Positions 1 to 19,307 of a stretch of DNA of 64,000 nt are shown one piece after another. The notes under the pieces are model-generated. The model was given only the letters and a program-made list of their open reading frames with translations. It did no database searches and was not told the origin of the DNA. A program made the translations under genes and the position numbers. Numbering within the stretch: the stretch's first letter is position 1; each line of letters starts with the position of its first letter. The DNA is taken from contig CALSUC010000002.1 in NCBI GenBank assembly GCA_943789445.1, positions 12,256 to 76,255 of the forward strand, written 5' to 3'. This DNA is from an uncultured Gammaproteobacteria bacterium. Its GTDB lineage: Bacteria > Pseudomonadota > Gammaproteobacteria > UBA4575.

Positions 1-2521
1 TGCAGTGGGTGTCGCAGCGGCTGAGGCCAGCAAGGCCATTATCCACAGCACAGTACCGCTGACCATTACCCTGGACGATACAGCTCTGACAGCGGGTGAA
101 ACCGCAACGGTCACCTTTACCTTTCATGAGGCCGTCACTGATTTCGATAACAGTGATATAACCGTGGAAGGCGGCACGTTATCAACCGTGACTTCAGCGG
201 ATGATGGCATCACCTGGACAGCAACGTTCAGGCCGACAGCGGGCATCAAAGATGCCACTAACCTGATTAAAGTGGGCTACGACTGGACCTATGTTTCTTC
301 GGGTAATGCACCCGCTGTTGAGCATGGGCAGGTCAACGCAGCCTTTACTACGGTAGCGCCAGTGGGTGTGACTGTTTCTGGTATTGGTAACAGCATCACC
401 AAAACGGCGATGGGTGGCAGCGGTAATGCAGGCACCTTCTCGGATCAGGTCATCACTGCAGATGGCTCGGTATCGACTACGGTAGCTGAAACGAATACGG
501 CCCGTACGATTGGTCTTTCTGGCAGCGATACCGATGTAAGCTATAGCTCGATTGATTACGCGTTGATATGTGGGCCGATGGCTCGCTTCGTGTCTATGAA
601 AACCGCTCTAACAAGGGGTGGGTCGGTACTTATGCGACAGGCGATGAACTGAGTGTTGAGCGTACTGGCTCGACGATTACCTACCTGAAAAATGACGTAG
701 TACTCTACACCTCAAGAGTTGCTTCGACGGGTGATTTGCATGTGGATACCTCGCTTACTAGTAAAGGTGCTACATTGAACGACATCGTCATCAAAGGGGA
801 TAACCTGACTGCAGGCGCCACAGGCATCACTGCCAGTAGCGCTAATTTTTCGGTTGATACCGTCTACGCCACCGCTGACCATTACCCTGGACGATACAGC
901 TCTGACAGCGGGTGAAACCGCAACGGTCACCTTTACCTTTAATGAGGCCGTCACTGGTTTCGATAACAGTGATATAACCTTGGAAGGCGGCACGTTATCA
1001 GCCGTGACTTCAGCGGATGATGGCATCACCTGGACAGCAACGTTCACGCCGACAGCGGACATCAAAGATGCCACTAACCTGATTAAAGTGGGCTACGACT
1101 GGACCTATGTTTCTTCGGGTAACGCACCCGCTGTTGAGCAGGTCAACGCAGCCTTTACCACGGTAGCGCCAGTGGGTGTGACTGTTTCTGGTAACAGCAT
1201 CACCAAAACGGCGATGGGTGGCAGCGGTAATGCAGGCACCTTCTCGGATCAGGTCATCACTGCAGATGGCTCGGTATCGACTACGGTAGCTGAAACGAAT
1301 ACGGCCCGTACGATTGGTCTTTCTGGCAGCGATACCGATGTAAGCTATAGCTCGATTGATTACGCGTTGATATGCGGGCCGATGGCTCGCTTCGTGTCTA
1401 TGAAAACCGCTCTAACAAGGGGTGGGTCGGTACTTATGCGACAGGCGATGTACTGAGTGTTGAGCGTACTGGCTCGACGATTACCTACCTGAAAAATGAC
1501 GTAGTACTCTACACCTCAAGAGTTGCTTCGACGGGTGATTTGCATGTGGATACCTCGCTTACTAGTAAAGGTGCTACATTGAACGACATCGTCATCAAAG
1601 GGGATAACCTGACTGCAGGCGCCACAGACTTCATTACCAGTAGCGCTAATTTTTCGGTTGATACCGTCTCGCCACCGCTGACCATTACCCTGGACGATAC
1701 AGCTCTGGCAGCGGGTGAAACCGCAACGGTCACCTTTACCTTTAATGATGCCGTCACTGGTTTCGATAACAGTGATATAACCGTGGAAGGCGGCACGTTA
1801 TCAGCCGTGACTTCAGCGGATGATGGCATAACTTGGACAGCAACGTTCACGCCGACAGCGGACATCAGTGATAGCACTAACCTGATTAAAGTGGGCTACG
1901 ATTGGACCTATGTTTCTTCGGGTAACGCACCCGCTGTTGAGCAGGTCAACGCAGCCTTTACCACGGTAGCGCCAGTGGGTGTGACTGTTACTGGTAACAG
2001 CATCACCAAAACGGCGGGGAATGGCTGGGTAATGCAGGCACCTTCTCGGATCAGGTCATCACTGCAGATGGCTCGGTATCGACTACGGTAGCTGAAACGA
2101 ATACGCATCGTATGATTGGTCTTTCTGACAGCGATACCGATGCAAGCTATACCTCGATTGATTACGCGATTTATCTGCGGACGATGGTCGCTTGTGGTCT
2201 ATGAAAACGGCGCTAACAAGGGGCGTTCGGTAGCTATGCGACAGGCGATGTACTGAGTGTTGAGCGTACTGGCTCGACGATTACCTACCTGAAAAATGGC
2301 TCGGTATTCTACACCTCAACAGTTGCTTCGACGGGTGATTTGCATGTGGATACCTCGTTGTATACGACAGGTGCTACATTGAACGACATCGTCATCACTC
2401 AGGCGCCACAGACTTCATTGCCAGTAGCGCTAATTATGTTGTTAATACCGTCACGCCAACCATCACCATTGCTGATGTCGCGGGCGACAACACCATTAAC
2501 TACCTTGAAGACGATGTCACC

Positions 2522-3796
2522 GTGGCTATCTCAGGTACCACCACGGGGGTGGAAGATGGGCAAATTCTGACCGTGACACTGAATGGCAAGGATTACCAAG
2601 CGACGGTTTCAGGCAATGCCTGGAGTGTGGATGTGCCAGCAGCAGATGTGCAAGCATTAGCAGAGAGTAACCATAGCGTTACCGCCTTAGGAGAGAGTAA
2701 CCATAGCGTTACCGCCAATGTAACGAATGCAGTGGGTGTCGCAGCGGCTGAGGCCAGCAAGGCCATTATCCACAGCACAGCACCGCTGACCATTACCCTG
2801 GACGATACAGCTCTGACGGCGGGTGAGACCGCAACGGTCACCTTTACCTTTCATGAGGCCGTCACAGGTTTCGATAACAGTGATATAACCGTGGAAGGCG
2901 GCACGTTATCAACCGTGACTTCAGCGGATGATGGCATCACTTGGACAGCAACGTTCACGCCGACAGCGGACATCAAAGATGCCACTAACCTGATTAAAGT
3001 GGGCTACGACTGGACCTATGTTTCTTCGGGTAATGCACCCGCTGTTGAGCAGCTCAACGCAGCCTTTACCACGGTAGCGCCAGCGGGTGTGACTGTTTCT
3101 GGTATTGGTAACAGCATCACCAAAACGGCGCCTAGCTGGCATAATGCAGGCACCTTCTCGGATCAGGTCATCACTGCAGATGGCTCGGTATCGACTACGG
3201 TAGCTGAAACGAATACGGCCCGTACGATTGGTCTTTCTGACATCGATACCAATCTACTCTATAGCTCGATTGATTACGCGCTTCGTCTGAGGAGTGATGG
3301 CTCGCTTAGTGTCTATGAAAACGGCGATAATAGGGGGTGGTTCGGTACTTATTCGAGTGGCGATGTACTGAGTGTTGAGCGTACTGGCTCGACGATTACC
3401 TACCTGAAAAATGGCTCGGTATTCTACACCTCAACAGTTGCTTCGACGGGTGATTTGCATGTGGATACCTCGCTTTCTAGTGAAGGTGCTACATTGAACG
3501 ACATCGTCATCAAAGGGGATAACCTGACTGCAGGCGCCACAGACTTCACTGCCAATAGCGCTAATTTTTCGGTTGATACCGTCACGCCACCGCTGACCAT
3601 TACCCTGGACGATACAGCTCTGGCAGCGGGTGAAACCGCAACGGTCACCTTTACCTTTAATGATGCCGTCACTGGTTTCGATAACAGTGATATAACCGTG
3701 GAAGGCGGCACGTTATCAGCCGTGACTTCAGCGGATGATGGCATCACTTGGACAGCAACGTTCACGCCGACAGCGGACATCAGTGATAGCCACTAA
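2522..3796 (+). CDS. Longest intact adhesin fragment ORF in gene 1 (424 aa). It covers a module C tail, module A, module B and the next module A.
   Basis: ORF track. It contains a 24-nt internal micro-duplication (ESNHSVTALGESNHSVTA) at 2661..2715. Confidence 0.5.
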   Translation: MAISGTTTGVEDGQILTVTLNGKDYQATVSGNAWSVDVPAADVQALAESNHSVTALGESNHSVTANVTNAVGVAAAEASKAIIHSTAPLTITLDDTALTAGETATVTFTFHEAVTGFDNSDITVEGGTLSTVTSADDGITWTATFTPTADIKDATNLIKVGYDWTYVSSGNAPAVEQLNAAFTTVAPAGVTVSGIGNSITKTAPSWHNAGTFSDQVITADGSVSTTVAETNTARTIGLSDIDTNLLYSSIDYALRLRSDGSLSVYENGDNRGWFGTYSSGDVLSVERTGSTITYLKNGSVFYTSTVASTGDLHVDTSLSSEGATLNDIVIKGDNLTAGATDFTANSANFSVDTVTPPLTITLDDTALAAGETATVTFTFNDAVTGFDNSDITVEGGTLSAVTSADDGITWTATFTPTADISDSH

Positions 3797-4439
3797 CCTG
3801 ATTAAAGTGGGCTACGATTGGACCTATGTTTCTTCGGGTAACGCACCCGCTGTTGAGCAGGTCAACGCAGCCTTTACCACGGTAGCGCCAGTGGGTGTGA
3901 CTGTTACTGGTAACAGCATCACCAAAACGGCGGCGGATGGCTGGGTAATGCAGGCACCTTCTCGGATCAGGTCATCACTGCAGATGGCTCGGTATCGACT
4001 ACGGTAGCTGAAACGAATACGCATCGTATGATTGGTCTTTCTGACAGCGATACCAATGCAAGCTATAGCTCGATTGATTACGCGATTTATCTGCGGAACG
4101 ATGGCTCGCTTGTTGTCTATGAAAACGGCGCTAACAAGGGGCGTTCGGTAGCTTATTCGAGTGGCGATGTACTGAGTGTTGAGCGTACTGGCTCGACGAT
4201 TACCTACCTGAAAAATGGCTCGGTATTCTACACCTCAACAGTTGCTTCGACGGGTGATTTGCATGTGGATACCTCGTTGATACGACAGGTGCTACATTGA
4301 ACGACATCGTCATCACTCAGGCGCCACAGACTTCATTGCCAGTAGCGCTAATTATGTTGTTAATACCGTCACGCCAACCATCACCATTGCTGATGTCGCG
4401 GGCGACAACACCATTAACTACCTTGAAGACGATGTCACC

Positions 4440-5267
4440 GTGGCTATCTCAGGTACCACCACGGGGGTGGAAGATGGGCAAGTTCTGACCGTGACACTGA
4501 ATGGCAAGGATTACCAAGCGACGGTTTCAGGCAATGCCTGGAGTGTGGATGTGCCAGCAGCAGATGTGCAAGCATTAGCAGAGGGTAACCATAGCGTTAC
4601 CGCCAATGTAACGAATGCAGTGGGTGTCGCAGCGGCTGAGGCCAGCAAGGCCATTATCCACAGCACAGCACCGCTGACCATTACCCTGGACGATACAGCT
4701 CTGACGGCGGGTGAGACCGCAACGGTCACCTTTACCTTTCATGAGGCCGTCACTGATTTCGATAACAGTGATATAACCGTGGAAGGCGGCACGTTATCAA
4801 CCGTGACTTCAGCGGATGATGGCATCACCTGGACAGCAACGTTCACGCCGACAGCGGGCATCAAAGATGCCACTAACCTGATTAAAGTGGGCTACGACTG
4901 GACCTATGTTTCTTCGGGTAATGCACCCGCTGTTGAGCATGGGCAGGTCAACGCAGCCTTTACCACGGTAGCGCCAGTGGGTGTGACTGTTTCTGGTATT
5001 GGTAACAGCATCACCAAAACGGCGATGGGTGGCAGCGGTAATGCAGGCACCTTCTCGGATCAGGTCATCACTGCAGATGGCTCGGTATCGACTACGGTAG
5101 CTGAAACGAATACGGCCCGTACGATTGGTCTTTCTGGCAGCGATACCGATGTAAGCTATAGCTCGATTGATTACGCGTTGATATGCGGGCCGATGGCTCG
5201 CTTCGTGTCTATGAAAACCGCTCTAACAAGGGGTGGGTCGGTACTTATGCGACAGGCGATGTACTGA
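4440..5267 (+). CDS. Adhesin fragment ORF (275 aa) covering modules C, A and part of B.
   Basis: ORF track. Same repeat protein. Confidence 0.45.
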   Translation: MAISGTTTGVEDGQVLTVTLNGKDYQATVSGNAWSVDVPAADVQALAEGNHSVTANVTNAVGVAAAEASKAIIHSTAPLTITLDDTALTAGETATVTFTFHEAVTDFDNSDITVEGGTLSTVTSADDGITWTATFTPTAGIKDATNLIKVGYDWTYVSSGNAPAVEHGQVNAAFTTVAPVGVTVSGIGNSITKTAMGGSGNAGTFSDQVITADGSVSTTVAETNTARTIGLSGSDTDVSYSSIDYALICGPMARFVSMKTALTRGGSVLMRQAMY

Positions 5268-8200
5268 GTGTTGAGCGTACTGGCTCGACGATTACCTACC
5301 TGAAAAATGACGTAGTACTCTACACCTCAAGAGTTGCTTCGACGGGTGATTTGCATGTGGATACCTCGCTTACTAGTAAAGGTGCTACATTGAACGACAT
5401 CGTCATCAAAGGGGATAACCTGACTGCAGGCGCCACAGGCATCACTGCCAGTAGCGCTAATTTTTCGGTTGATACCGTCACGCCACCGCTGACCATTACC
5501 CTGGACGATACAGCTCTGACAGCGGGTGAGACCGCAACGGTCACCTTTACCTTTAATGAGGCCGTCACTGGTTTCGATAACAGTGATATAACCTTGGAAG
5601 GCGGCACGTTATCAGCCGTGACTTCAGCGGATGATGGCATCACCTGGACAGCAACGTTCACGCCGACAGCGGACATCAAAGATGCCACTAACCTGATTAA
5701 AGTGGGCTACGACTGGACCTATGTTTCTTCGGGTAACGCACCCGCTGTTGAGCAGGTCAACGCAGCCTTTACCACGGTAGCGCCAGTGGGTGTGACTGTT
5801 ACTGGTAACAGCATCACCAAAACGGCGGGGATGGCGCGGTAATGCAGGCACCTTCTCGGATCAGGTCATCACTGCAGATGGCTCGGTATCGACTACGGTA
5901 GCTGAAACGAATACGGCCCGTACGATTGGTCTTTCTGACAGCGATACCGATGTAAGCTATAGCTCGATTGATTACGCGTTGATATGCTGGGCCGATGGCT
6001 CGCTTCGTGTCTATGAAAACGGCTCTAACAAGGGGTGGGTCGGTACTTATGCGACAGGCGATGTACTGAGTGTTGAGCGTACTGGCTCGACGATTACCTA
6101 CCTGAAAAATGGCGTCGGTATTCTACACCTCAAGAGTTGCTTCGACGGGTGATTTGCATGTGGATACCTCGCTTTCTAGTACAGGTGCTACATTGAACGA
6201 CATCGTCATCAAAGGGGATAACCTGACTGCAGGCGCCACAGACTTCATTACCAGTAGCGCTAATTTTTCGGTTGATACCGTCGTCACGCCACCGCCGACC
6301 ATTACCCTGGACGATACAGCTCTGACGGTGGGTGAAACCGCAACGGTCACCTTTACCTTTAATGAGGCCGTCACTGGTTTCGATAACAGTGATATAACCG
6401 TGGAAGGCGGCACGTTATCAGCCGTGACTTCAGCGGATGATGGCATCACCTTGGACAGCAACGTTCACGCCGACAGCGGACATCAATGATGCCACTAACC
6501 TGATTAAAGTGGGCTACGATTGGACCTATGTTTCTTCGGGTAACGCACCCGCTGTTGAGCAGGTCAACGCAGCCTTTACCACGGTAGCGCCAGTGGGTGT
6601 GACTGTTACTGGTAACAGCATCACCAAAACGGCGGGGATGGCTGGTAATGCAGGCACCTTCTCGGATCAGGTCATCACTGCAGATGGCTCGGTATCGACT
6701 ACGGTAGCTGAAACGAATACGCATCGTATGATTGGTCTTTCTGACAGCGATACCGATGTAAGCTATACCTCGATTGATTACGCGTTGTATCTGGCGAACG
6801 ATGGTCGATTGGGGTCTATGAAAACGGCGCTAACAAGGGGAGTTCGGTACTTATGCGACAGGCGATGTACTGAGTGTTGAGCGTACTGGCTCGACGATTA
6901 CCTACCTGAAAAATGGCTCGGTATTCTACACCTCAACAGTTGCTTCGACGGGTGATTTGCATGTGGATACCTCGTTGTTAGTACAGGTGCTACATTGAAC
7001 GACATCGTCATCAAAGGGGATAACCTGACTGCAGGCGCCACAGACTTCATTGCCAGTAGCGCTAATTTTTCGGTTGATACCGTCACGCCACCGCTGACCA
7101 TTACCCTGGACGATACAGCTCTGACGGCGGGTGAAACCGCAACGGTCACCTTTACCTTTAATGAGGCCGTCACCGGTTTCGATAACAGTGATATAACCGT
7201 GGAAGGCGGCACGTTATCAGCCGTGACTTCAGCGGATGATGGCATCACCTGGACAGCAACGTTCACGCCGACAGCGGACATCAATGATGCCACTAACCTG
7301 ATTAAAGTGGGCTACGATTGGACCTATGTTTCTTCGGGTAACGCACCCGCTGTTGAGCAGGTCAACGCAGCCTTTACCACGGTAGCGCCAGTGGGTGTGA
7401 CTGTTACTGGTAACAGCATCACCAAAACGGCGGCGGATGGCTGGGTAATGCAGGCACCTTCTCGGATCAGGTCATCACTGCAGATGGCTCGGTATCGACT
7501 ACGGTAGCTGAAACGAATACGGCTCGTATGATTGGTCTTTCTGACAGCGATACCAATGTAAGCTATACCTCGATTGATTACGCGATTTATCTGCGGAACG
7601 ATGGTCGCTTGTGGTCTATGAAAACGGCGCTAACAAGGGGACGTTCGGTAGCTTATGCGACAGGCGATGTACTGAGTGTTGAGCGTACTGGCTCGACGAT
7701 TACCTACCTGAAAAATGGCTCGGTATTCTACACCTCAACAGTTGCTTCGACGGGTGATTTGCATGTGGATACCTCGTTGTATACGACAGGTGCTACATTG
7801 AACGACATCGTCATCAAAGGGGATAACCTGACTGCAGGCGCCACAGACTTCATTGCCAGTAGCGCTAATTTTTCGGTTGATACCTAGCCACCGCTGACCA
7901 TTACCCTGGACGATACAGCTCTGACGGCGGGTGAAACCGCAACGGTCACCTTTACCTTTAATGAGGCCGTCACTGGTTTCGATAACAGTGATATAACCTT
8001 GGAAGGCGGCACGTTATCAGCCGTGACTTCAGCGGATGATGGCATAACTTGGACAGCAACGTTCACGCCGACAGCGGACATCAATGATGCCACTAACCTG
8101 ATTAAAGTGGGCTACGATTGGACCTATGTTTCTTCGGGTAACGCACCCGCTGTTGAGCAGGTCAACGCAGCCTTTACCACGGTAGCGCCAGTGGGTGTGA

Positions 8201-9356
8201 CTGTTACTGGTAACAGCATCACCAAAACGGCGGCGGTGGCTGGGTAATGCAGGCACCTTCTCGGATCAGGTCATCACTGCAGATGGCTCGGTAGTCGACT
8301 ACGGTAGCTGAAACGAATACGGCTCGTATGATTGGTCTTTCTGACAGCGATACCGATGCAAGCTATACCACGATTGATTACGCGATTTTTCTGCGGAACG
8401 ATGGTCGCTTGTGGTCTTTGAAAACGGCGCTACAAGGGGACGTTCGGTAGCTTATGCGACAGGCGATGTACTGAGTGTTGAGCGTACTGGCTCGACGATT
8501 ACCTACCTGAAAAATGGCTCGGTATTCTACACCTCAACAGTTGCTTCGACGGGTGATTTGCATGTGGATACCTCGTTGTATACGACAGGTGCTACATTGA
8601 ACGACATCGTCATCAAAGGGGATAACCTGACTGCAGGCGCCACAGACTTCATTGCCAGTAGCGCTAATTTTTCGGTTGATACCTCTGCCACCGCTGACCA
8701 TTACCCTGGACGATACAGCTCTGGCGGCGGGTGAAACCGCAACGGTCACCTTTACCTTTAATGAGGCCGTCACTGGTTTCGATAACAGTGATATAACCTT
8801 GGAAGGCGGCACGTTATCAGCCGTGACTTCAGCGGATGATGGCATCACCTGGACAGCAACGTTCACGCCGACAGCGGACATCAGTGATAGCCACTAACCT
8901 GATTAAAGTGGGCTACGACTGGACCTATGTTTCTTCGGGTAACGCACCCGCTGTTGAGCAGGTCAACGCAACCTTTACCACGGTAGCGCCAGTGGGTGTG
9001 ACTGTTACTGGTAACGACATCACCAAAACGGCGGCGTGGCTGGGTAATGCAGGCACCTTCTCGGATCAGGTCATCACTGCAGATGGCTTTATGTCGACTA
9101 CGGTAGCTGAAACGAATACGTATCGTATGATTGGTCTTTCTGACAGCGATACCGATGTAAGCTATACCACGATTGATTACGCGATTTTTCTGGCGAACAA
9201 TGGTGCGCTTCTTGTCTTTGAAAACGGCGCTTACAAGGGGGGTTCGGTAGCTATGCGACAGGCGATGTACTGAGTGTTGAGCGTACTGGCTCGACGATTA
9301 CCTACCTGAAAAATGGCTCGGTATTCTACACCTCAACAGTTGCTTCGACGGGTGAT

Positions 9357-9908
9357 TTGCATGTGGATACCTCGTTGTATACGACAGGTGCTACATTGAA
9401 CGACATCGTCATCAAAGGGGATAACCTGACTGCAGGCGCCACAGACTTCATTGCCTCTAGCGCTAATTTTTCGGTTGATACAGCAGGTACAGCAGCTATT
9501 GTAGGTACTTCAGGAGCAGATACCCTTGTAGGTGATGCAAATGATAATATCATCACAGGTGGTGATGGAGACGATACGATGACTGGTAGTGGTGGTCATG
9601 ATATCTTTGATTTCAATCTTTCGACCTTAGGGAATACAGATACGATATCTGATTTCATACTGGGAGCTGAAGCAACAGCGGATACGGATAAATTAGATTT
9701 AAGTGACTTACTCTCTTATACAACCGGTGATGACTTGGCACACTTTATTCAAGTGCTAGATGGTGGTACAGATGTCACGCTAAACATTGATAAAGATGGT
9801 GAATCTGATTTTACGACCCCTGAGCAGATAATTATTTTAGAAGGTATTGGAACAGGTTCTTTGGACTTGGCTGCTTTGACAGCGGACGATAATCTAGTCG
9901 TTTTATAA
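9357..9908 (+). CDS. C-terminal fragment of adhesin 1. RTX calcium-binding nonapeptide repeats plus the T1SS C-terminal target domain occupy 9483..9908.
   Basis: GGxGxDxxx repeats and the DLSDLL motif are present. A stop at 9906-9908 is followed by the terminator. Confidence 0.7.
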   Translation: MHVDTSLYTTGATLNDIVIKGDNLTAGATDFIASSANFSVDTAGTAAIVGTSGADTLVGDANDNIITGGDGDDTMTGSGGHDIFDFNLSTLGNTDTISDFILGAEATADTDKLDLSDLLSYTTGDDLAHFIQVLDGGTDVTLNIDKDGESDFTTPEQIIILEGIGTGSLDLAALTADDNLVVL

Positions 9909-10047
9909 AAAGTAGCGATAAATAAAAGCCCTCACTAACGTTGTTGTTTGGTGAGGGCTTTTTTTTTGTAGTACAAGCAACGTATCATAAGTAATTACTC
10001 GGTAATGCCGAGGGCTACTAGTGATTGAATAAGATTGATACTGCCCT
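9909..10047. repeat. Copy 1 of an identical ~139-bp direct repeat forming the 3' flank of an adhesin gene. It contains a terminator.
   Basis: The string 'aaagtagcgataaataaaagccctcactaacgttgttgtttggtgagggcttttttttt...gattgatactgccct' is identical to 19169..19307. The flanks diverge immediately after (10048 'ttcggg' versus 19308 'aaacat'). Confidence 0.9.
9928..9967 (+). terminator. Rho-independent terminator of adhesin 1.
   Basis: Stem gccctcac(9928-9935)/gtgagggc(9951-9958) followed by a T9 run. Confidence 0.85.
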
Positions 10048-13030
10048 TTCGGGTGCTCACCTAATGCCTTTATTATCCGCTGCCCCAGAGCGACCACAAG
10101 TCGTCGATCTACGCGCTCAAGGGCATGCGCCGGTCAATGTGATTATTTCTTGTTACATGACTGGAGTTACCTGCTTTTCCAAATATAGTCAAAGATAACC
10201 TAACTTAATTTTGGTGAGGTTTGACCGCTCAGTTCGGACTTTAAGACGGATTAAAGTGCTCTTCTTTATTTGGTTAATATATAATTTTTTTGTTTTTATG
10301 GGGCTCCAGTTAATGCGAGCTGCCGCTGAATAAAAATAATCTATAAAACAATATGTAACAGATAGCGGGCATGGGGAGATCCACATTGCCTAGGATTTAG
10401 AATTCAGCCGATGGTGGCAGGCCTAGTATGGCCGCTTACCTAAAAGATGCGAGTTGGCTACTCGGAGATAGTGGACTGCGTATTAATTATTGTACTTTTT
10501 AACAGTTCACTAAATATTATAAAAATTAAAGGTAGCATGGTTATGAGTGAAAAAATTCAAGAAGCGACCAGCTCAATGTATAAGAATTCAAGGGGTGTCG
10601 CAGCGGCTGAGCAGCAAGGCCATTATCTATCACAGCACAGCACCGCTGACCATTACCCTGGACGATACAGCTCTGACGGCGGGTGAAACCGCAACGGTCA
10701 CCTTTACCTTTAATGAGGCCGTCACCGGTTTCGATAACAGTGATATAAGCTTGGAAGGCGGCACGTTATCAGCCGTGACTTCAGCGGATGATGGCATCAC
10801 CTGGACAGCAACGTTCACGCCGACAGCGGACATCAAAGATGCCACTAACCTGATTAAAGTGGGCTACGACTGGACCTATGTTTCTTCGGGTAACGCACCC
10901 GCTGTTGAGCAGCTCAACGCAGCCTTTACCACGGTAGCGCCAGTGGGTGTGACTGTTACTGGTAACAACATCACCAAAACGGCGGGGGAGGCTGGGCTAA
11001 TGCAGGCGCCTTCTCGGATCAGGTCATCACTGCAGATGGCTCGGTAGTCGACTACGGTAGCTGAAACGAATACGGCCCGTATGATTGGTCTTTCTGACAG
11101 CGATACCGATGCAAGCTATGCCACGATTGATTACGCGATTTATTTGCGGAACGATGGCTGCGCTTGTGTCTTTGAAAACGGCGCTAGCAAGGGGACGTTC
11201 GGTACTTATTCGAGTGGCGATGTACTGAGTGTTGAGCGTACTGGCTCGACGATTACCTACCTGAAAAATGGCTCGGTATTCTACACCTCAGCGGTTGCTT
11301 CGACGGGTGATTTGCATGTGGATACCTCGTTGCATACGACAGGTGCTACATTGAACGACATCGTCATCAAAGGGGATAACCTGACTGCAGGCGCCACAGA
11401 CTTCATTGCCTCTAGCGCTAATTTTTCGGTTGATACCGTCAGCCACCGCTGACCATTACCCTGGACGATACAGCTCTGACGGCGGGTGAAACCGCAACGG
11501 TCACCTTTACCTTTAATGAGGCCGTCACCGGTTTCGATAACAGTGATATAACCGTGGAAGGCGGCACGTTATCAGCCGTGACTTCAGCGGATGATGGCAT
11601 CACTTGGACAGCAACGTTCACGCCGACAGCGGACATCAATGATGCCACTAACCTGATTAAAGTGGGCTACGATTGGACCTATGTTTCTTCGGGTAACGCA
11701 CCCGCTGTTGAGCAGCTCAACGCAGCCTTTACCACGGTAGCGCCAGTGGGTGTGACTGTTACTGGTAACAGCATCACCAAAACGGCGGGGGTGGCTGGGC
11801 TAATGCAGGCACCTTCTCGGATCAGGTCATCACTGCAGATGGCTCGGTAGTCGACTACGGTAGCTGAAACGAATACGGCTCGTATGATTGGTCTTTCTGA
11901 CAGCGATACCGATGCAAGCTATAGCCACGATTGATTACGCGATTTATCTGCGGAACGATGGTGCGCTTGTGGTCTTTGAAAACGGCGCTAGCAAGGGGAC
12001 GTTCGGTACTTATTCGAGTGGCGATGTACTGAGTGTTGAGCGTACTGGCTCGACGATTACCTACCTGAAAAATGGCTCGGTATTCTACACCTCAACGGTT
12101 GCTTCGACGGGTGATTTGCATGTGGATACCTCGTTGCATACGACAGGTGCTACATTGAACGACATCGTCATCAAAGGGGATAACCTGACTGCAGGCGCCA
12201 CAGACTTCATTGCCAGTAGCGCTAATTTTTCGGTTGATACCATCACCACCGCTGACCATTACCCTGGACGATACAGCTCTGACGGCGGGTGAAACCGCAA
12301 CGGTCACCTTTACCTTTAATGAGGCCGTCACTGGTTTCGATAACAGTGATATAACCGTGGAAGGCGGCACGTTATCAGCCGTGACTTCAGCGGATGATGG
12401 CATAACTTGGACAGCAACGTTCACGCCGACAGCGGACATCAATGATGCCACTAACCTGATTAAAGTGGGCTACGATTGGACCTATGTTTCTTCGGGTAAC
12501 GCACCCGCTGTTGAGCAGGTCAACGCAGCCTTTACCACGGTAGCGCCAGTGGGTGTGACTGTTACTGGTAACAGCATCACCAAAACGGCGGCGATGGCTG
12601 GGCTAATGCAGGCACCTTCTCGGATCAGGTCATCACTGCAGATGGCTCGGTATCGACTACGGTAGCTGAAACGAATACGGCTCGTATGATTGGTCTTTCT
12701 GACAGCGATACCGATGCAAGCTATACCACGATTGATTACGCGATTTATCTGCGGAACAATGGCTCGCTTGGGGTCTTTGAAAACGGCGCTAACAAGGGGA
12801 CGTTCGGTAGCTTATGCGACAGGCGATGTACTGAGTGTTGAGCGTACTGGCTCGACGATTACCTACCTGAAAAATGGCTCGGTATTCTACACCTCAACAG
12901 TTGCTTCGACGGGTGATTTGCATGTGGATACCTCGTTGCATACGACAGGTGCTACATTGAACGACATCGTCATCAAAGGGGATAACCTGACTGCAGGCGC
13001 CACAGACTTCATTGCCTCTAGCGCTAATTT

Positions 13031-13837
13031 TTGGTTAATACCGTCACGCCAACCATCACCATTGCTGATGTCGCGGGCGACAACACCATTAACTACCTTG
13101 AAGACGATGTCGACGTGGCTATCTCAGGTACCACCACGGGGGTGGAAGATGGGCAAGTTCTGACCGTGACACTGAATGGCAAGGATTACCAAGCGACGGT
13201 TTCAGGCGATGCCTGGAGTGTGGATGTGCCAGCAGCAGATGTGCAAGCATTAGCAGAGGGTAACCATAGCGTTACCGCCAATGTAACGAATGCAGTGGGT
13301 GTCGCAGCGGCTGAGGCCAGCAAGGCCATTATCCATAACAGCACAGCACCGCTGACCATTACCCTGGACGATACAGCTCTGGCGGCGGGTGAAACCGCAA
13401 CGGTCACCTTTACCTTTAATGAGGCCGTCACTGGTTTCGATAACAGTGATATAACCGTGGAAGGCGGCACGTTATCAGCCGTGACTTCAGCGGATGATGG
13501 CATCACTTGGACAGCAACGTTCACGCCGACAGCGGACATCAATGATGCCACTAACCTGATTAAAGTGGGCTACGATTGGACCTATGTTTCTTCGGGTAAC
13601 GCACCCGCTGTTGAGCAGGTCAACGCAGCCTTTACCACGGTAGCGCCAGTGGGTGTGACTGTTACTGGTAACAGCATCACCAAAACGGCGGCGAATGGCT
13701 GGACTAATGCAGGCACCTTCTCGGATCAGGTCATCACTGCAGATGGCTCGGTATCGACTACGGTAGCTGAAACGAATACGGATCGTATGATTGGTCTTTC
13801 TGACAGCGATACCAATGCTAAGCTATACCACGATTGA
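13031..13837 (+). CDS. Adhesin 2 fragment ORF (268 aa) covering modules C, A and the start of B.
   Basis: ORF track. Confidence 0.45.
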   Translation: MVNTVTPTITIADVAGDNTINYLEDDVDVAISGTTTGVEDGQVLTVTLNGKDYQATVSGDAWSVDVPAADVQALAEGNHSVTANVTNAVGVAAAEASKAIIHNSTAPLTITLDDTALAAGETATVTFTFNEAVTGFDNSDITVEGGTLSAVTSADDGITWTATFTPTADINDATNLIKVGYDWTYVSSGNAPAVEQVNAAFTTVAPVGVTVTGNSITKTAANGWTNAGTFSDQVITADGSVSTTVAETNTDRMIGLSDSDTNAKLYHD

Positions 13838-14648
13838 TTACGCGATTTATCTGCGGAACAATGGTGCGCTTGGGGTCTATGAAAACGGCGCTAACAAGGG
13901 GACGTTCGGTAGCTATGCGACAGGCGATGTACTGAGTGTTGAGCGTACTGGCTCGACGATTACCTACCTGAAAAATGGCTCGGTATTCTACACCTCAACA
14001 GTTGCTTCGACGGGTGATTTGCATGTGGATACCTCGTTGTATACGACAGGTGCTACATTGAACGACATCGTCATCAAAGGGGATAACCTGACTGCAGGCG
14101 CCACAGACTTCATTGCCTCTAGCGCTAATTTTTCGGTTAATACCGTCACGCCAACCATCACCATTGCTGATGTCGCGGGCGACAACACCATTAACTACCT
14201 TGAAGACGATGTCGACGTGGCTATCTCAGGTACCACCACGGGGGTGGAAGATGGGCAAGTTCTGACCGTGACACTGAATGGCAAGGATTACCAAGCGACG
14301 GTTTCAGGCGATGCCTGGAGTGTGGATGTGCCAGCAGCAGATGTGCAAGCATTAGCAGAGGGTAACCATAGCGTTACCGCCAATGTAACGAATGCAGTGG
14401 GTGTCGCAGCGGCTGAGGCCAGCAAGGCCATTATCCATAACAGCACAGCACCGCTGACCATTACCCTGGACGATACAGCTCTGGCGGCGGGTGAAACCGC
14501 AACGGTCACCTTTACCTTTAATGAGGCCGTCACTGGTTTCGATAACAGTGATATAACCGTGGAAGGCGGCACGTTATCAGCCGTGACTTCAGCGGATGAT
14601 GGCATCACCTTGGACAGCAACGTTCACGCCGACAGCGGACATCAATGA
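13791..14648 (+). CDS. Adhesin 2 fragment ORF (285 aa) covering modules B, C and A.
   Basis: ORF track. Confidence 0.45.
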   Translation: MVFLTAIPMLSYTTIDYAIYLRNNGALGVYENGANKGTFGSYATGDVLSVERTGSTITYLKNGSVFYTSTVASTGDLHVDTSLYTTGATLNDIVIKGDNLTAGATDFIASSANFSVNTVTPTITIADVAGDNTINYLEDDVDVAISGTTTGVEDGQVLTVTLNGKDYQATVSGDAWSVDVPAADVQALAEGNHSVTANVTNAVGVAAAEASKAIIHNSTAPLTITLDDTALAAGETATVTFTFNEAVTGFDNSDITVEGGTLSAVTSADDGITLDSNVHADSGHQ

Positions 14649-16876
14649 TACCACTAACCTGATTAAAGTGGGCTACGATTGGACCTATGTTTCTTCGGGT
14701 AACGCACCCGCTGTTGAGCAGGTCAACGCAGCCTTTACCACGGTAGCGCCAGTGGGTGTGACTGTTACTGGTAACAGCATCACCAAAACGGCGGCGGATG
14801 GCTGGTAATGCAGGCACCTTCTCGGATCAGGTCATCACTGCAGATGGCTCGGTATTCGACTACGGTAGCTGAAACGAATACGCATCGTATGATTGGTCTT
14901 TCTGACAGCGATACCAATGCTAAGCTATACCTCGATTGATTACGCGATTTATCTGCGGACAATGGTGCGCTTGGGTCTATGAAAACGGCGCTAACAAGGG
15001 GACGTTCGGTACTTATGCGACAGGCGATGTACTGAGTGTTCAGCGTACTGGCTCGACGATTACCTACCTGAAAAATGGCTCGGTATTCTACACCTCAACA
15101 GTTGCTTCGACGGGTGATTTGCATGTGGATACCTCGTTGATACGACAGGTGCTACATTGAACGACATCGTCATCGACTCAGGCGCCACAGACTTCATTGC
15201 CACTAGCGCTAATTATTTGGTTAATACCGTCACGCCAACCATCACCATTGCTGATGTCGCGGGCGACAACACCATTAACTACCTTGAAGACGATGTCGAC
15301 GTGGCTATCTCAGGTACCACCACGGGGGTGGAAGATGGGCAAGTTCTGACCGTGACACTGAATGGCAAGGATTACCAAGCGACGGTTTCAGGCGATGCCT
15401 GGAGTGTGGATGTGCCAGCAGCAGATGTGCAAGCATTAGCAGAGGGTAACCATAGCGTTACCGCCAATGTAACGAATGCAGTGGGTGTCGCAGCGGCTGA
15501 GGCCAGCAAGGCCATTATCTATAACAGCACAGCACCGCTGACCATTACCCTGGACGATACAGCTCTGGCGGCGGGTGAAACCGCAACGGTCACCTTTACC
15601 TTTAATGAGGCCGTCACTGGTTTCGATAACAGTGATATAACCGTGGAAGGCGGCACGTTATCAGCCGTGACTTCAGCGGATGATGGCATCACCTTGGACA
15701 GCAACGTTCACGCCGACAGCGGACATCAATGATACCACTAACCTGATTAAAGTGGGCTACGATTGGACCTATGTTTCTTCGGGTAACGCACCCGCTGTTG
15801 AGCAGGTCAACGCAGCCTTTACCACGGTAGCGCCAGTGGGTGTGACTGTTACTGGTAACAGCATCACCAAAACGGCGGCGGATGGCTGGTAATGCAGGCA
15901 CCTTCTCGGATCAGGTCATCACTGCAGATGGCTCGGTATCGACTACGGTAGCTGAAACGAATACGCATCGTATGATTGGTCTTTCTGACAGCGATACCAA
16001 TGTAAGCTATACCTCGATTGATTACGCGATTTATCTGCGGACAATGGTGCGCTTGTGGTCTATGAAAACGGCGCTAACAAGGGGACGTTCGGTACTTATG
16101 CGACTGGCGATGTACTGAGTGTTCAGCGTACTGGCTCGACGATTACCTACCTGAAAAATGGCTCGGTATTCTACACCTCAACAGTTGCTTCGACGGGTGA
16201 TTTGCATGTGGATACCTCGTTGATACGACAGGTGCTACATTGAACGACATCGTCATCAAAGCGGATAACCTGACTGCAGGCGCCACAGACTTCATTGCCA
16301 GTAGCGCTAATTTTTCGGTTAATACCATCACGCCAACCATCACCATTGCTGATGTCGCGGGCGACAACACCATTAACTACCTTGAAGACGATGTCAACGT
16401 GGCTATCTCAGGTACCACCACGGCGGTGGAAGATGGGCAAGTTCTGACCGTGACACTGAATGGCAAGGATTACCAAGCGACGGTTTCAGGCAATGCCTGG
16501 AGTGTGGTGTGCCAGCAGCAGATGTGCAAGCATTAGCAGAGGGTAACCATAGCGTTACCGCCAATGTAACGAATGCAGTGGGTGTCGCAGCGGCTGAGGC
16601 CAGCAAGGCCATTATCTATAACAGCACAGCACCGCTGACCATTACCCTGGACGATACAGCTCTGACGGCGGGTGAAACCACTCAGGTTACCTTTACCTTT
16701 CATGAGGCCGTCACGTGGAAAATTTTGACATCAATGATATTGCGGTTGAAAACGGCACCCGTTCATCGAGTCCTGTCGACTTCAGATGATGTGGAATAAC
16801 TTCACAGCAACATTAACGCCAGATTCTGCCGCGGCCGATAGCACCAATAAAATTTCCGTGGGTAATCGCTGGAACT

Positions 16877-18220
16877 TTGTTGGGTCTGCTCCTGAATCGG
16901 GTAATAAACCGGTTGTGTTTGTATCAGAAGTTGGTGTGGACACGATTGGTAATAATATTTTTAAAACGGCGGCGACTGGCTGGTAATGCAGGCACCTTCT
17001 CGGATCAGGTCATCACTGCAGATGGCTCGGTATCGACTACGGTAGCTGAAACGAATACGCATCGTATGATTGGTCTTTCTGACAGCGATACCAATGTAAG
17101 CTTTACCTCGATTGATTACGCGATTTATCTGAGGAGCAATGGTGCGCTTGCGGTCTTTGAAAACGGCGCTAACAAGGGGGAGTTCGGTACTTATTCGAGT
17201 GGCGATGTACTGAGTGTTGAGCGCTTCGGCTCGACGATTACCTACCTGAAAAATGGCTCGGTATTCTACACCTCAACAGTTGCTTCGACGGGTGATTTGC
17301 ATGTGGATACCTCGTTGCATACGACAGGTGCTACATTGCAAAATGTGGTTATCAATAATGGCGAGTTGGTTAGCAGTAATAATTATGCGGTGAACACTCT
17401 GACGCCAACCATTAATATTGATGCGATTGCCACAGATAATGTTTTGGATTTCGTTGAAGATAATCACTCGTTGCTTGTCACCGGTACAACCACCAACGTA
17501 TCAGATGGGCAAGTGGTGACTGTGACTATCGCCGGTGTCGAGTATACGAGCAGTGTGACGGGTAATGTATGGGGCGTTAAGGTGCCGCAGGCGGTTGCTG
17601 CGGCGCTATCCTCAAGCGTTACGGTGGCTGTGAGTGTCAGTAACGCATCAGGCGTTAACGCAACGGCCAATACGACTTTCACTCACACTACTGATGAGCC
17701 TGTGGTCATTACTATCAGTGATAATGATATAGATTCATCAGAAACGGCCGTGGTTACCTTCCGGTTCAAGGAGGCTGTTACAGACTTCGAGCTTGCTGAT
17801 ATTAATGTGGATTCAGGCACCTTATCTAATCTTGTTAGCACGGATGGCGGTACAACCTTCACCGCGACCTTTACACCAACACCGGGTGTGAAGAGCGACG
17901 TCAGCAAAATCTCGATTGGTTCCAATTGGACGTATCAGTCGTCTGGTGCATCGCCTGTAGTATCAGACATCAAGGTCGCCTTTGAAAATGAAGTGGGTGT
18001 TGATGTAACTACTAATAATATTGTCAAAACAGGATTTGCTGGTTGGACTTCAGGTGCCTTTTCTGAGAATTCCCTGGCAGGGGATGGTTACGTTGCAACT
18101 ACGGTAGCTGAAACGAATACGCATCGTATGATTGGTCTTTCTGACAGCGATACCAATGTAAGCTTTGACACGATTGATTACGCGTTTATCTGCGTGCAAT
18201 GGTGCGCTTGTGGTCTTTGA
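16877..18220 (+). CDS. Adhesin 2 fragment ORF (447 aa) spanning the diverged repeat copies B, C', A'' and B'.
   Basis: ORF track. It is ~50% identical to the homogenised copies (TVAETNTHRMIGLSDSDTNVSF is retained). Confidence 0.5.
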   Translation: MLGLLLNRVINRLCLYQKLVWTRLVIIFLKRRRLAGNAGTFSDQVITADGSVSTTVAETNTHRMIGLSDSDTNVSFTSIDYAIYLRSNGALAVFENGANKGEFGTYSSGDVLSVERFGSTITYLKNGSVFYTSTVASTGDLHVDTSLHTTGATLQNVVINNGELVSSNNYAVNTLTPTINIDAIATDNVLDFVEDNHSLLVTGTTTNVSDGQVVTVTIAGVEYTSSVTGNVWGVKVPQAVAAALSSSVTVAVSVSNASGVNATANTTFTHTTDEPVVITISDNDIDSSETAVVTFRFKEAVTDFELADINVDSGTLSNLVSTDGGTTFTATFTPTPGVKSDVSKISIGSNWTYQSSGASPVVSDIKVAFENEVGVDVTTNNIVKTGFAGWTSGAFSENSLAGDGYVATTVAETNTHRMIGLSDSDTNVSFDTIDYAFICVQWCACGL

Positions 18221-18448
18221 AAACGGCATTAGCAAGGGGGCGTTCGGTAGCTATGCGACAGGCGATGTACTGAGTGTTCAGCGTACTGGCTCGACGATTA
18301 CCTACCTGAAAAATGGCTCGGTATTCTACACCTCAACAGTTGCTTCGACGGGTGATTTGCATGTGGATACCTCGTTGGATACGACAGGCAGTACATTAAA
18401 GAATATTGTGATCAGCGATGGAAGGCTTGCACCAGCAGCGATTACAGC

Positions 18449-19153
18449 GTGGATACGCAGTTTAGTCTTGAAAATGCTAGCGTGGCGGGTAATCAAGTTG
18501 TGCTCACCTTTGATGCGACGATTAATGCACTTAGCACTCCGTCACTTCAATCTTTTGATATTCAGGTTGATGGCGCGACCAGAAACGTTACGGCGATTTC
18601 CTTTTCGGGCAATACGGCTACGTTAACCATTGATGGAAAAGCGGTGGTTGATACTGATTCAGTCGAATTCTCTTATAGTCAGCTAGGTTCTGCTGGTTTT
18701 GAGAGTGCTGCGGGAGCTGTTGTTGCTAATAACAACATTGAGGCTGTGTTTGGCACCACAGGTAATAATGCTATTTCTGGAACCTCTGCCAGTGAATATG
18801 TGTTTGGTGGCAGTGGTAATGATACTATTACTGGTGGTGCTGGGAATGATATTCTGACAGGTGGCGCTGGTAGCGATACTTTTGATTACAACAACACTAC
18901 AGATGGCAGCGACACCATTACCGACTTTACCGTGGGGAGTGGTGGTGACAGCTTAGATTTACGTGACCTTTTAGATTACGCTAGTGGTGATACCTTAGCT
19001 GACTACATTGAATTGACAAACGATGGGACAGACGTCACCTTAAAAATAGATAAAGACGGGGGCGGTGATGAATTTACCAGCCCTGATGTAACAATTACTC
19101 TACAAGGGATCAATGATGCAGCAGGTTACTTTGGCATCACTAGAGACCGATAA
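18449..19153 (+). CDS. C-terminal fragment of adhesin 2. It carries a unique beta-rich region, RTX repeats and the T1SS C-terminal target domain.
   Basis: Contains GGSGNDTITGGAGNDILTGGAGSDTFDY and DSLDLRDLLDY. The stop is followed by the terminator copy. Confidence 0.7.
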   Translation: MDTQFSLENASVAGNQVVLTFDATINALSTPSLQSFDIQVDGATRNVTAISFSGNTATLTIDGKAVVDTDSVEFSYSQLGSAGFESAAGAVVANNNIEAVFGTTGNNAISGTSASEYVFGGSGNDTITGGAGNDILTGGAGSDTFDYNNTTDGSDTITDFTVGSGGDSLDLRDLLDYASGDTLADYIELTNDGTDVTLKIDKDGGGDEFTSPDVTITLQGINDAAGYFGITRDR

Positions 19154-19168
19154 CTTAGCCGTATTGTA

Positions 19169-19307
19169 AAAGTAGCGATAAATAAAAGCCCTCACTAACG
19201 TTGTTGTTTGGTGAGGGCTTTTTTTTTGTAGTACAAGCAACGTATCATAAGTAATTACTCGGTAATGCCGAGGGCTACTAGTGATTGAATAAGATTGATA
19301 CTGCCCT
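19169..19307. repeat. Copy 2 of the ~139-bp direct repeat (3' flank of adhesin 2).
   Basis: Identical to 9909..10047. Confidence 0.9.
19188..19227 (+). terminator. Rho-independent terminator of adhesin 2 (identical to the 9928..9967 copy).
   Basis: Same hairpin and T-run. Confidence 0.85.

Follow-up and report, generated by a model that had tools for sequence, protein, structure and literature searches.

Reiteration of a SPRY-like domain along two tandem RTX adhesin genes of an uncultured gammaproteobacterium

The DNA analysed here (the window) comprises 64 000 nucleotides (nt) of contig CALSUC010000002.1 (assembly GCA_943789445.1, positions 12 256 to 76 255 of the forward strand) from an uncultured Gammaproteobacteria bacterium of the lineage UBA4575. 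An initial annotation, made from the letters of the sequence, had described in its first part a repeated domain of about 140 residues, module B. The array of B modules is divided between two tandem genes for type I-secreted RTX adhesins and does not lie in a single gene. By its predicted fold B is a SPRY-like domain, and we lean towards regarding it as a binding module that is reiterated along both secreted proteins. All coordinates given below are those of the window, and all features lie on its + strand.

The repeat units are built from three modules, A, B and C, which were defined from one long clean open reading frame (ORF; 2522–3796) and then mapped by tblastn. Module A recurs in every unit and module C in some units only; the periods of the repeat region are ∼800 nt for A plus B and ∼1100 nt for C plus A plus B. 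Module A (for example 2777–3142) is a Big_12 bacterial immunoglobulin-like (Ig-like) domain followed by a linker (PF19078, E = 3.6e-53 for the ORF). Module C (for example 2522–2779) is a Ca_tandemer-like Ig domain (NF033510, E = 9e-11, under the NCBIfam cut-off). No solved structural relative of module A or module C was found by sequence. Within one C module a perfect-like 30-nt tandem duplication at 2657–2716 doubles the peptide 'AESNHSVTA(L/N)' (Tandem Repeats Finder score 113, 96% matches).

Searching with the clean B copy at 3143–3583 gave 19 copies in positions 1–19153, a number far beyond chance that bears out the earlier count of at least 18; the consensus quoted with that count agrees with the translations of the copies. 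Gene 1 (1–9908) encodes a giant RTX adhesin of [C]-A-B repeats, its 5' end lies beyond the window and its reading frame changes many times. It holds 11 copies of B. The first, reported at 430–860 and found to be real, was matched at 425–864 in two segments (425–565 in frame 2 and 568–864 in frame 1) with a 1-nt frameshift between them near 566, and its fold domain extends over ∼365–810. The second (1229–1668) carries the same 1-nt deletion; in the third (2031–2396) the tail is replaced and a C module follows. The fourth is the clean reference copy, and after it come copies at 3947–4370, 5040–5479, 5841–6282, 6647–7084 (with a frame-shifted stretch inside), 7447–7884 (with a short double frameshift within the variable segment described below), 8246–8683 and 9046–9482, the last of gene 1. 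Gene 2 (10547–19153), a paralogous RTX adhesin gene that starts at GTG 10547 or, with a frameshift, at ATG 10538, holds the other eight: 11048–11440 (matched from residue 17, the copy itself starting at ∼11000), 11811–12244, 12605–13031, 13706–14147, 14807–15231, 15891–16329, 16985–17401 (in frame) and 18050–18440, which is the most diverged copy and contains one frameshift.

Both genes end in sequences typical of RTX adhesins. RTX nonapeptides make up the C-terminus of gene 1 (9483–9908) together with a type I secretion target domain of the VCA0849 type, which scores 36.9 bits with TIGR03661 (cut-off 17.6). In the C-terminus of gene 2 (18449–19153) an SWM repeat is present in addition to the nonapeptides and the secretion target domain, the latter scoring 51.2 bits with the same model. 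PF00353 matched both C-termini above its cut-off (E = 8e-8 and 1e-12). The SWM_repeat, or cyanobacterial long-protein repeat (PF13753, E = 2.8e-8; 18449–18690), occurs in gene 2 only, where it follows the last B copy and precedes the RTX region. C-terminal RTX nonapeptides, a type I secretion signal and a tandem array of Ig-like (Big_12) extenders are thus found together, and at the level of predicted domains the two genes are shown to encode type I-secreted RTX-type proteins in which Ig-like domains alternate with a SPRY-like domain.

The limits of the B domain were redrawn from its homologues and from a structural model. Homologue matches span residues ∼22–25 to 164–167 of the query, and the domain, about 145 residues in length, therefore starts ∼20 residues ahead of 'NAGTFS' (at '…PAGVTVSGNSITKTA..W') and ends at 'IVIKG', extending from ∼3083 to ∼3530 in the clean copy. 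The earlier limits were right in position, but their start fell ∼60 nt downstream of the beginning of the domain and their end ∼55 nt beyond it; the last ∼20 residues of the module as first drawn read as linker or next-domain sequence.

An AlphaFold2 model of B, calculated with a 55-sequence alignment, was obtained with a mean predicted local distance difference test score (pLDDT) of 92.3 and a predicted template-modelling score (pTM) of 0.88; it is a β-sandwich of 13–14 strands. The corresponding single-sequence run (pLDDT 40) was not usable. A Foldseek search with a model of the clean copy, which had been proposed as a check on the domain, returned SPRY/B30.2 domains as the top solved matches: some twenty such entries lead the list with probability 1.00, E ≃ 1e-6 and TM-scores of 0.66–0.69. 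Among them are Ash2L (6w5n_D, E = 1.2e-6, TM-score 0.66) and TRIM67 (7qs5, TM-score 0.69), and further SPRY-type matches were SPRYD7 (7ccb), DDX1 (4xw3), TRIM9/16/25, RanBP9/10, SPSB3 and NEUZ; GH16, CBM66 and PL7 structures come after the SPRY entries. By its modelled fold B is a SPRY-like member of the concanavalin-A-like superfamily. The statement that B is not an Ig-like, cadherin or VCBS domain was borne out, as was its description as a discrete, folded, β-rich domain.

No curated sequence family covers the domain. Neither Pfam nor NCBIfam gave any match to the clean B copy, even at E ≤ 10; a Pfam match over the whole domain was looked for and none was found. With 68 diverse family members (alignment A2) as queries the same two collections returned noise and weak partial matches to Phage_cement (PF22758) and Mycobacteriophage_Gene3 (PF25687). 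The latter family, 'Mycobacteriophage Gene 3 protein', reached whole-protein E values down to 2e-12 on two multi-copy homologues (P0028 and P0101), in which no single stretch passed; this small family is perhaps distantly related to the B domain at the level of a fragment. The initial description of B as unassigned therefore stands as regards curated sequence families, but not otherwise, since the SPRY-like fold, a phage protein family (PHROG 19691) and a solved phage protein assign the domain.

A word-indexed homologue search with a single copy retrieved 25 fragments only and at first suggested a rare domain. An exhaustive search gave 4349 protein clusters at E ≤ 1e-3, 2220 of them at E ≤ 1e-10 and 554 at E ≤ 1e-30, and the 150 best-scoring proteins hold 815 copies in all. 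Proteins from several hundred to several thousand residues in length account for most of the matches listed; they contain as many as 25 copies each, spaced either by 150–160 residues, head to tail, or by 240–250 residues, a distance that in our interpretation would leave room for one Ig-sized domain between copies. Relatives were found in Bacteroidota, Acidobacteriota, Gammaproteobacteria, Alphaproteobacteria and Arcobacter; those from a scan of a genome collection with a single copy are 27–55% identical. The cluster names of the large homologues are uninformative ('hypothetical protein', or a spurious 'ribosomal protein S4E'). B thus belongs to a very large family without a Pfam or NCBIfam model, which forms tandem arrays in giant surface or secreted proteins of several bacterial phyla.

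The family extends to phages. PHROG 19691, a phage virion structural protein family, was matched by 63 of the 68 family members (best E = 6.8e-18) and by the window copy (E = 2.1e-13) at profile positions 128–254 of 623, so that B corresponds to one domain of the phage protein only. Against the Protein Data Bank (PDB) the family profile matched a 620-residue 'Structural protein' (26gp_Q, E = 1.2e-5) over nearly the whole domain. Among predicted structures, that of the structural protein of Cellulophaga phage phi13:1 superimposes on the B model with a TM-score of 0.87 and a root-mean-square deviation of 1.9, and an uncultured marine phage protein automatically named 'ash2 subunit' gave a TM-score of 0.85. 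Matches at 30% identity (tblastn, E = 2e-10) lie in virion structural proteins of the marine Cellulophaga phages phiST, phi13:1 and phi19:2. A literature search for a structure of the phage protein found nothing specific.

The copies within the window resemble one another in an uneven way. The terminal ones had been given as ∼50% diverged; measured identity to the clean copy is 71% for that at 16985 and ∼59–68% for that at 18050, while the A modules that flank them are ∼45% identical. A 39-residue core ('GDVLSV…VDTSL') differs little or not at all among the 18 copies that read it in frame, and the corresponding DNA is 95–100% identical, with 0–7 differences per 117 nt and 0–2 synonymous codon differences per 39 codons. 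The A module of the last unit, on the other hand, shows synonymous differences at 34 of ∼113 aligned codons, and the A modules of the terminal units carry many synonymous changes with respect to internal copies (eight of 13 codons in one block, for example). Because the B core is near-identical as DNA while the adjacent A modules differ synonymously, the pattern indicates homogenization of the core by gene conversion (concerted evolution) and is not evidence for purifying selection. Selection had been deduced from conservation in the terminal copies, and that argument fails, as the conservation there is near-identity at the DNA level, to be ascribed to gene conversion; selection on the B fold is shown by the breadth of the family.

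The differences between copies lie in one 58-codon segment ('AETNT…GDVLSV'; 3203–3376 in the clean copy), in the window as in contig L001 and in a syntenic metagenomic contig (L025). On the model it spans a long loop, a hairpin and the strand that follows. The pooled ratio of nonsynonymous to synonymous differences per site (pN/pS) was 1.31 (pN 0.186) for the segment, a value obtained from eight in-frame copies of three contigs, i.e. from error-prone assemblies in which consensus errors cluster in this very segment and from pairs that are not independent; for the A module of the same genes it was 0.53 (pN 0.027; 21 copies). These values suggest relaxed or diversifying selection on the variable patch.

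We judge it somewhat probable that module B is a SPRY-like binding module reiterated along secreted giant adhesins. Folding would depend on Ca2+ and take place outside the cell; the Ig-like domains would serve as a rod, each SPRY-like domain would present a face that binds a protein or a glycan, and the fibre would then bind with high avidity over its whole length and not at the tip alone. The face would probably be made up of the long 'SDSDTNVSY' loop and the hairpin that follows it, because this is the sole part that varies between copies, mostly by amino-acid-changing substitutions; gene conversion would keep the rest of B near-identical. The fold class is one of binding modules, and in homologues the domain adjoins FN3 and a GH5 cellulase, PKD, cadherin and Big_9 domains, Calx-beta, RCC1 and PD40, or a type IX secretion system (T9SS) sorting tail. 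The earlier proposal of a ligand- or carbohydrate-binding role is reasonable in view of the SPRY/concanavalin-A-like fold.

The main rival to the binding module is a structural extender bead without a ligand of its own, which together with Big_12 would add length, bulk and mechanical or hydrodynamic properties, the true ligand-binding region lying elsewhere (for instance upstream of the window) or not existing; we regard this as possible but on balance unlikely. Several observations weigh against a binding role, and some of them speak directly for a bead. The ligand-binding region of an RTX adhesin normally comprises one or a few domains near the C-terminus, and 19 near-identical copies, homogenized by gene conversion, resemble an extender more than such a region; in homologues, likewise, as many as 25 copies follow one another head to tail. 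Neither a ligand nor a binding pocket or metal site was identified for B. The SPRY assignment comes from the fold (TM-scores of 0.66–0.69 at 8–18% identity). Of the 27 families that the 68 members matched at E ≤ 1, 25 are listed, and Pfam SPRY (PF00622) is not one of them; the sole related match is to Neuralized, with E = 0.084 in one member. The reservations attached to the pN/pS value belong here as well. As to the carrier proteins, genes for type I secretion (for an ABC transporter, membrane fusion protein or TolC-like protein) are absent from the window, the region further upstream lying beyond it. Gene 2 has no N-terminal retention module within the window, and its protein, if made, may therefore not be anchored but released; the window does not reach the N-terminus of gene 1. 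The bead in turn has to contend with the fact that in the known RTX extenders, which are Ig-like sandwiches, the two termini lie at opposite ends, whereas SPRY/concanavalin-A-like domains are typically binding modules, that variation is focused in one segment with pN/pS above 1 against the lower value of the Ig module, and that a homologous domain occurs in a phage virion protein. A bolder version of the binding module is a multi-specific recognition array, in which the patch 'SDSDTNVSY…LRNDGSLVVYENGANKG.FG' would diversify under positive selection on a gene-converted, identical scaffold, much as the variable loops of TRIM5α-type SPRY domains diversify; we hold this to be rather doubtful. Were it true, one fibre would show many related but distinct binding sites, and a recognition module would have been exchanged between phages and the surface proteins of bacteria of several phyla.

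Other identities for the domain are far less plausible. The presence of GH16, VvEG16 and PL7 structures among the Foldseek matches (ranks 17, 21 and 41; E ≃ 1e-5) might point to a catalytic concanavalin-A-like domain, a GH16-type glucanase or PL7-type lyase, but some twenty SPRY entries outrank them, their length is greater (185–216 residues against 158), and the GH16 ExDxxE motif was not seen in the window copy on our reading. The near-invariant S, GL, E.G, Y, D, Y..N and D, which in the copy at 3077–3529 are S28, G52, L53, E81, G83, Y92, D96, Y109, N112 and D130, resemble hairpin and turn positions more than a catalytic set. A catalytic domain repeated 19 times would also, in our judgement, be unusual, and we consider the possibility very slight. 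An internally duplicated fold had been proposed from two related segments of the consensus, and the resemblance of 'Y.L..DG.L.VYENG' to the QxDxNxVxY subdomains of pyocin L1 would fit a bulb-type lectin (monocot mannose-binding, β-prism II) with such a duplication; pyocins L1 and L2 were in fact the only PDB matches in a phmmer search (E = 0.011–0.16), on that motif. These E values are marginal, the pyocin matches vanish with the family profile, and the window consensus fits at most three of the five QxDxNxVxY positions. The confident model is one sandwich and not a three-fold prism, and the two segments form separate, successive β-hairpins with G-containing (N/D-G) turns, the first being YALRL-RSDG-SLSVYE. 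Comparison of the two halves with hhalign, using sub-alignments of the family, gave 13 aligned columns (probability 2.9%, P = 0.016) and is not significant. On the profile search, the model and the half-against-half comparison both the duplication and the lectin identity, which we think scarcely credible, were rejected. A last alternative is that both genes are decayed pseudogenes, so that the frameshifts are real and module B has no function in this host. Counted from one tblastn segment to the next, gene 1 has 18 changes of frame and gene 2 has 20, ∼38 in 19 kb, with short double shifts within copies on top of these, and only two B copies (3143–3583 and 16985–17401) read in a single frame over their whole length; the database relatives from the word-indexed search are likewise fragments, and one deletion is common to the window and one copy of L025. 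The shifts are, however, confined to the repeats, where they concentrate in the copy-variable part of B. The remaining 44 kb of unique genes (19471–64000) contain none, and AcrB (1011 residues) and others match Pfam profiles from end to end, further full-length neighbours being a molybdopterin oxidoreductase (991 residues) and aminopeptidase N (887 residues). The sequence TTGA[G/A]TATG, which varies from copy to copy, is the site of a recurrent 1-nt deletion (e.g. near 566, 1370 and 5181); in L025 this site is intact, and an ORF of 1486 residues runs through the same repeat units without interruption. Apart from the short shifted stretches, the translated copies show neither stops nor other damage. 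Names of the 'contig_7820' type fit, as we read them, long-read metagenome assemblies, and a frameshift and assembly problem of the same kind has been documented for RTX adhesins in a recent survey (10.1101/2025.09.30.679566). As the shifts are confined to repeats, fall at sites that differ between copies and leave the frame open in L025, they are probably assembly or polishing errors and not gene decay; we are confident that both adhesin genes are intact in vivo, and consider decay improbable.

Gene 2 appears to differ from gene 1 in its origin and has a different end. Between the two genes lie ∼600 nt of unique sequence. A strong stem-loop with a T-run at 9920–9967 (AAAAGCCCTCACTAACG…GGTGAGGGCTTTTTTTTT), directly 3' of the gene 1 stop, resembles an intrinsic terminator; Rfam and promoter scans of the intergenic region (9850–10650) found this hairpin only, which also gives rise to weak, spurious Thr/Phe leader matches in Rfam. 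The gene 1 stop codon and the hairpin are included in a 140-nt exact direct repeat (9908–10047), the second copy of which lies downstream of gene 2 (19168–19307). The two repeats flank a 9.26-kb segment that contains all of gene 2 and is absent from the syntenic locus in L025, where a gene 1-type C-terminus stands immediately upstream of gshA. Only ∼30 residues precede the first A (Big_12) module of gene 2, and homology to the C-to-A junction of the repeats begins near 10590. Since L025 has only the gene 1-type C-terminus next to gshA, gene 2 appears to be an additional paralogue, truncated at its 5' end and different in its C-terminus, that was acquired by recent insertion or duplication. In the window the array is followed by gshA, an RND pump (AcrB and its fusion protein) and housekeeping genes.

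This family, found in giant surface proteins of bacteria by the thousand and in virion proteins of phages, has no curated sequence model; such a model, which could be anchored to a solved phage structure, would annotate much sequence that is now 'hypothetical'. The picture of RTX adhesins as Ig-like extenders with a few tip-located binding domains would be extended to one putative binding module per repeat. The locus also illustrates how repeat assemblies corrupt genes of this kind and how homogenization at the DNA level can be mistaken for selection.

Classical SPRY domains for the most part occur in single copy within eukaryotic cells, where they serve as protein-interaction modules. With the SPRY/B30.2 domains of Ash2L, SPRYD7, DDX1, RanBP9/10 and the TRIM PRY-SPRY proteins the B domain shares the bent two-sheet β-sandwich and, on our reading of the sequence, the hallmark hairpin 'GD-x-hydrophobic strand … x-Y-x-K/R-N-G'; the B family differs in being extracellular, bacterial or phage-borne and arranged in long tandem arrays. 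CBM66, LamG and GH16 share the fold at the superfamily level, but they rank lower, are longer and have no detected sequence relationship to B. The Cellulophaga phage protein is a true sequence homologue over the whole B domain; there the domain stands as a single copy near the N-terminus of a virion protein of 555–626 residues, encoded among virion structural genes, whereas in the window it forms tandem arrays. Among adhesins, MpIBP, FrhA and the Aeromonas hydrophila adhesin resemble the present proteins in having Ig-like extenders, C-terminal RTX repeats and a type I secretion signal, and B is, like their CBM-like, vWFA and peptide-binding domains, a β-sandwich of a lectin-like superfamily. 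The Ig-like domains of other RTX adhesins are reported to form a rod stiffened by Ca2+ (PMC7493085). The binding domains of described RTX adhesins are one or few in number, project from 'split' domains and are situated close to the C-terminus (PMC12077191, PMC10865825, 10.1101/2025.09.30.679566), whereas here a candidate binding domain is present in every repeat unit up to the RTX region; a full-text literature search for 'SPRY' together with 'RTX adhesin' found no paper. The fold and the carrier protein are both of known kinds, and it is the placement of the domain in every unit that departs from the described architecture.

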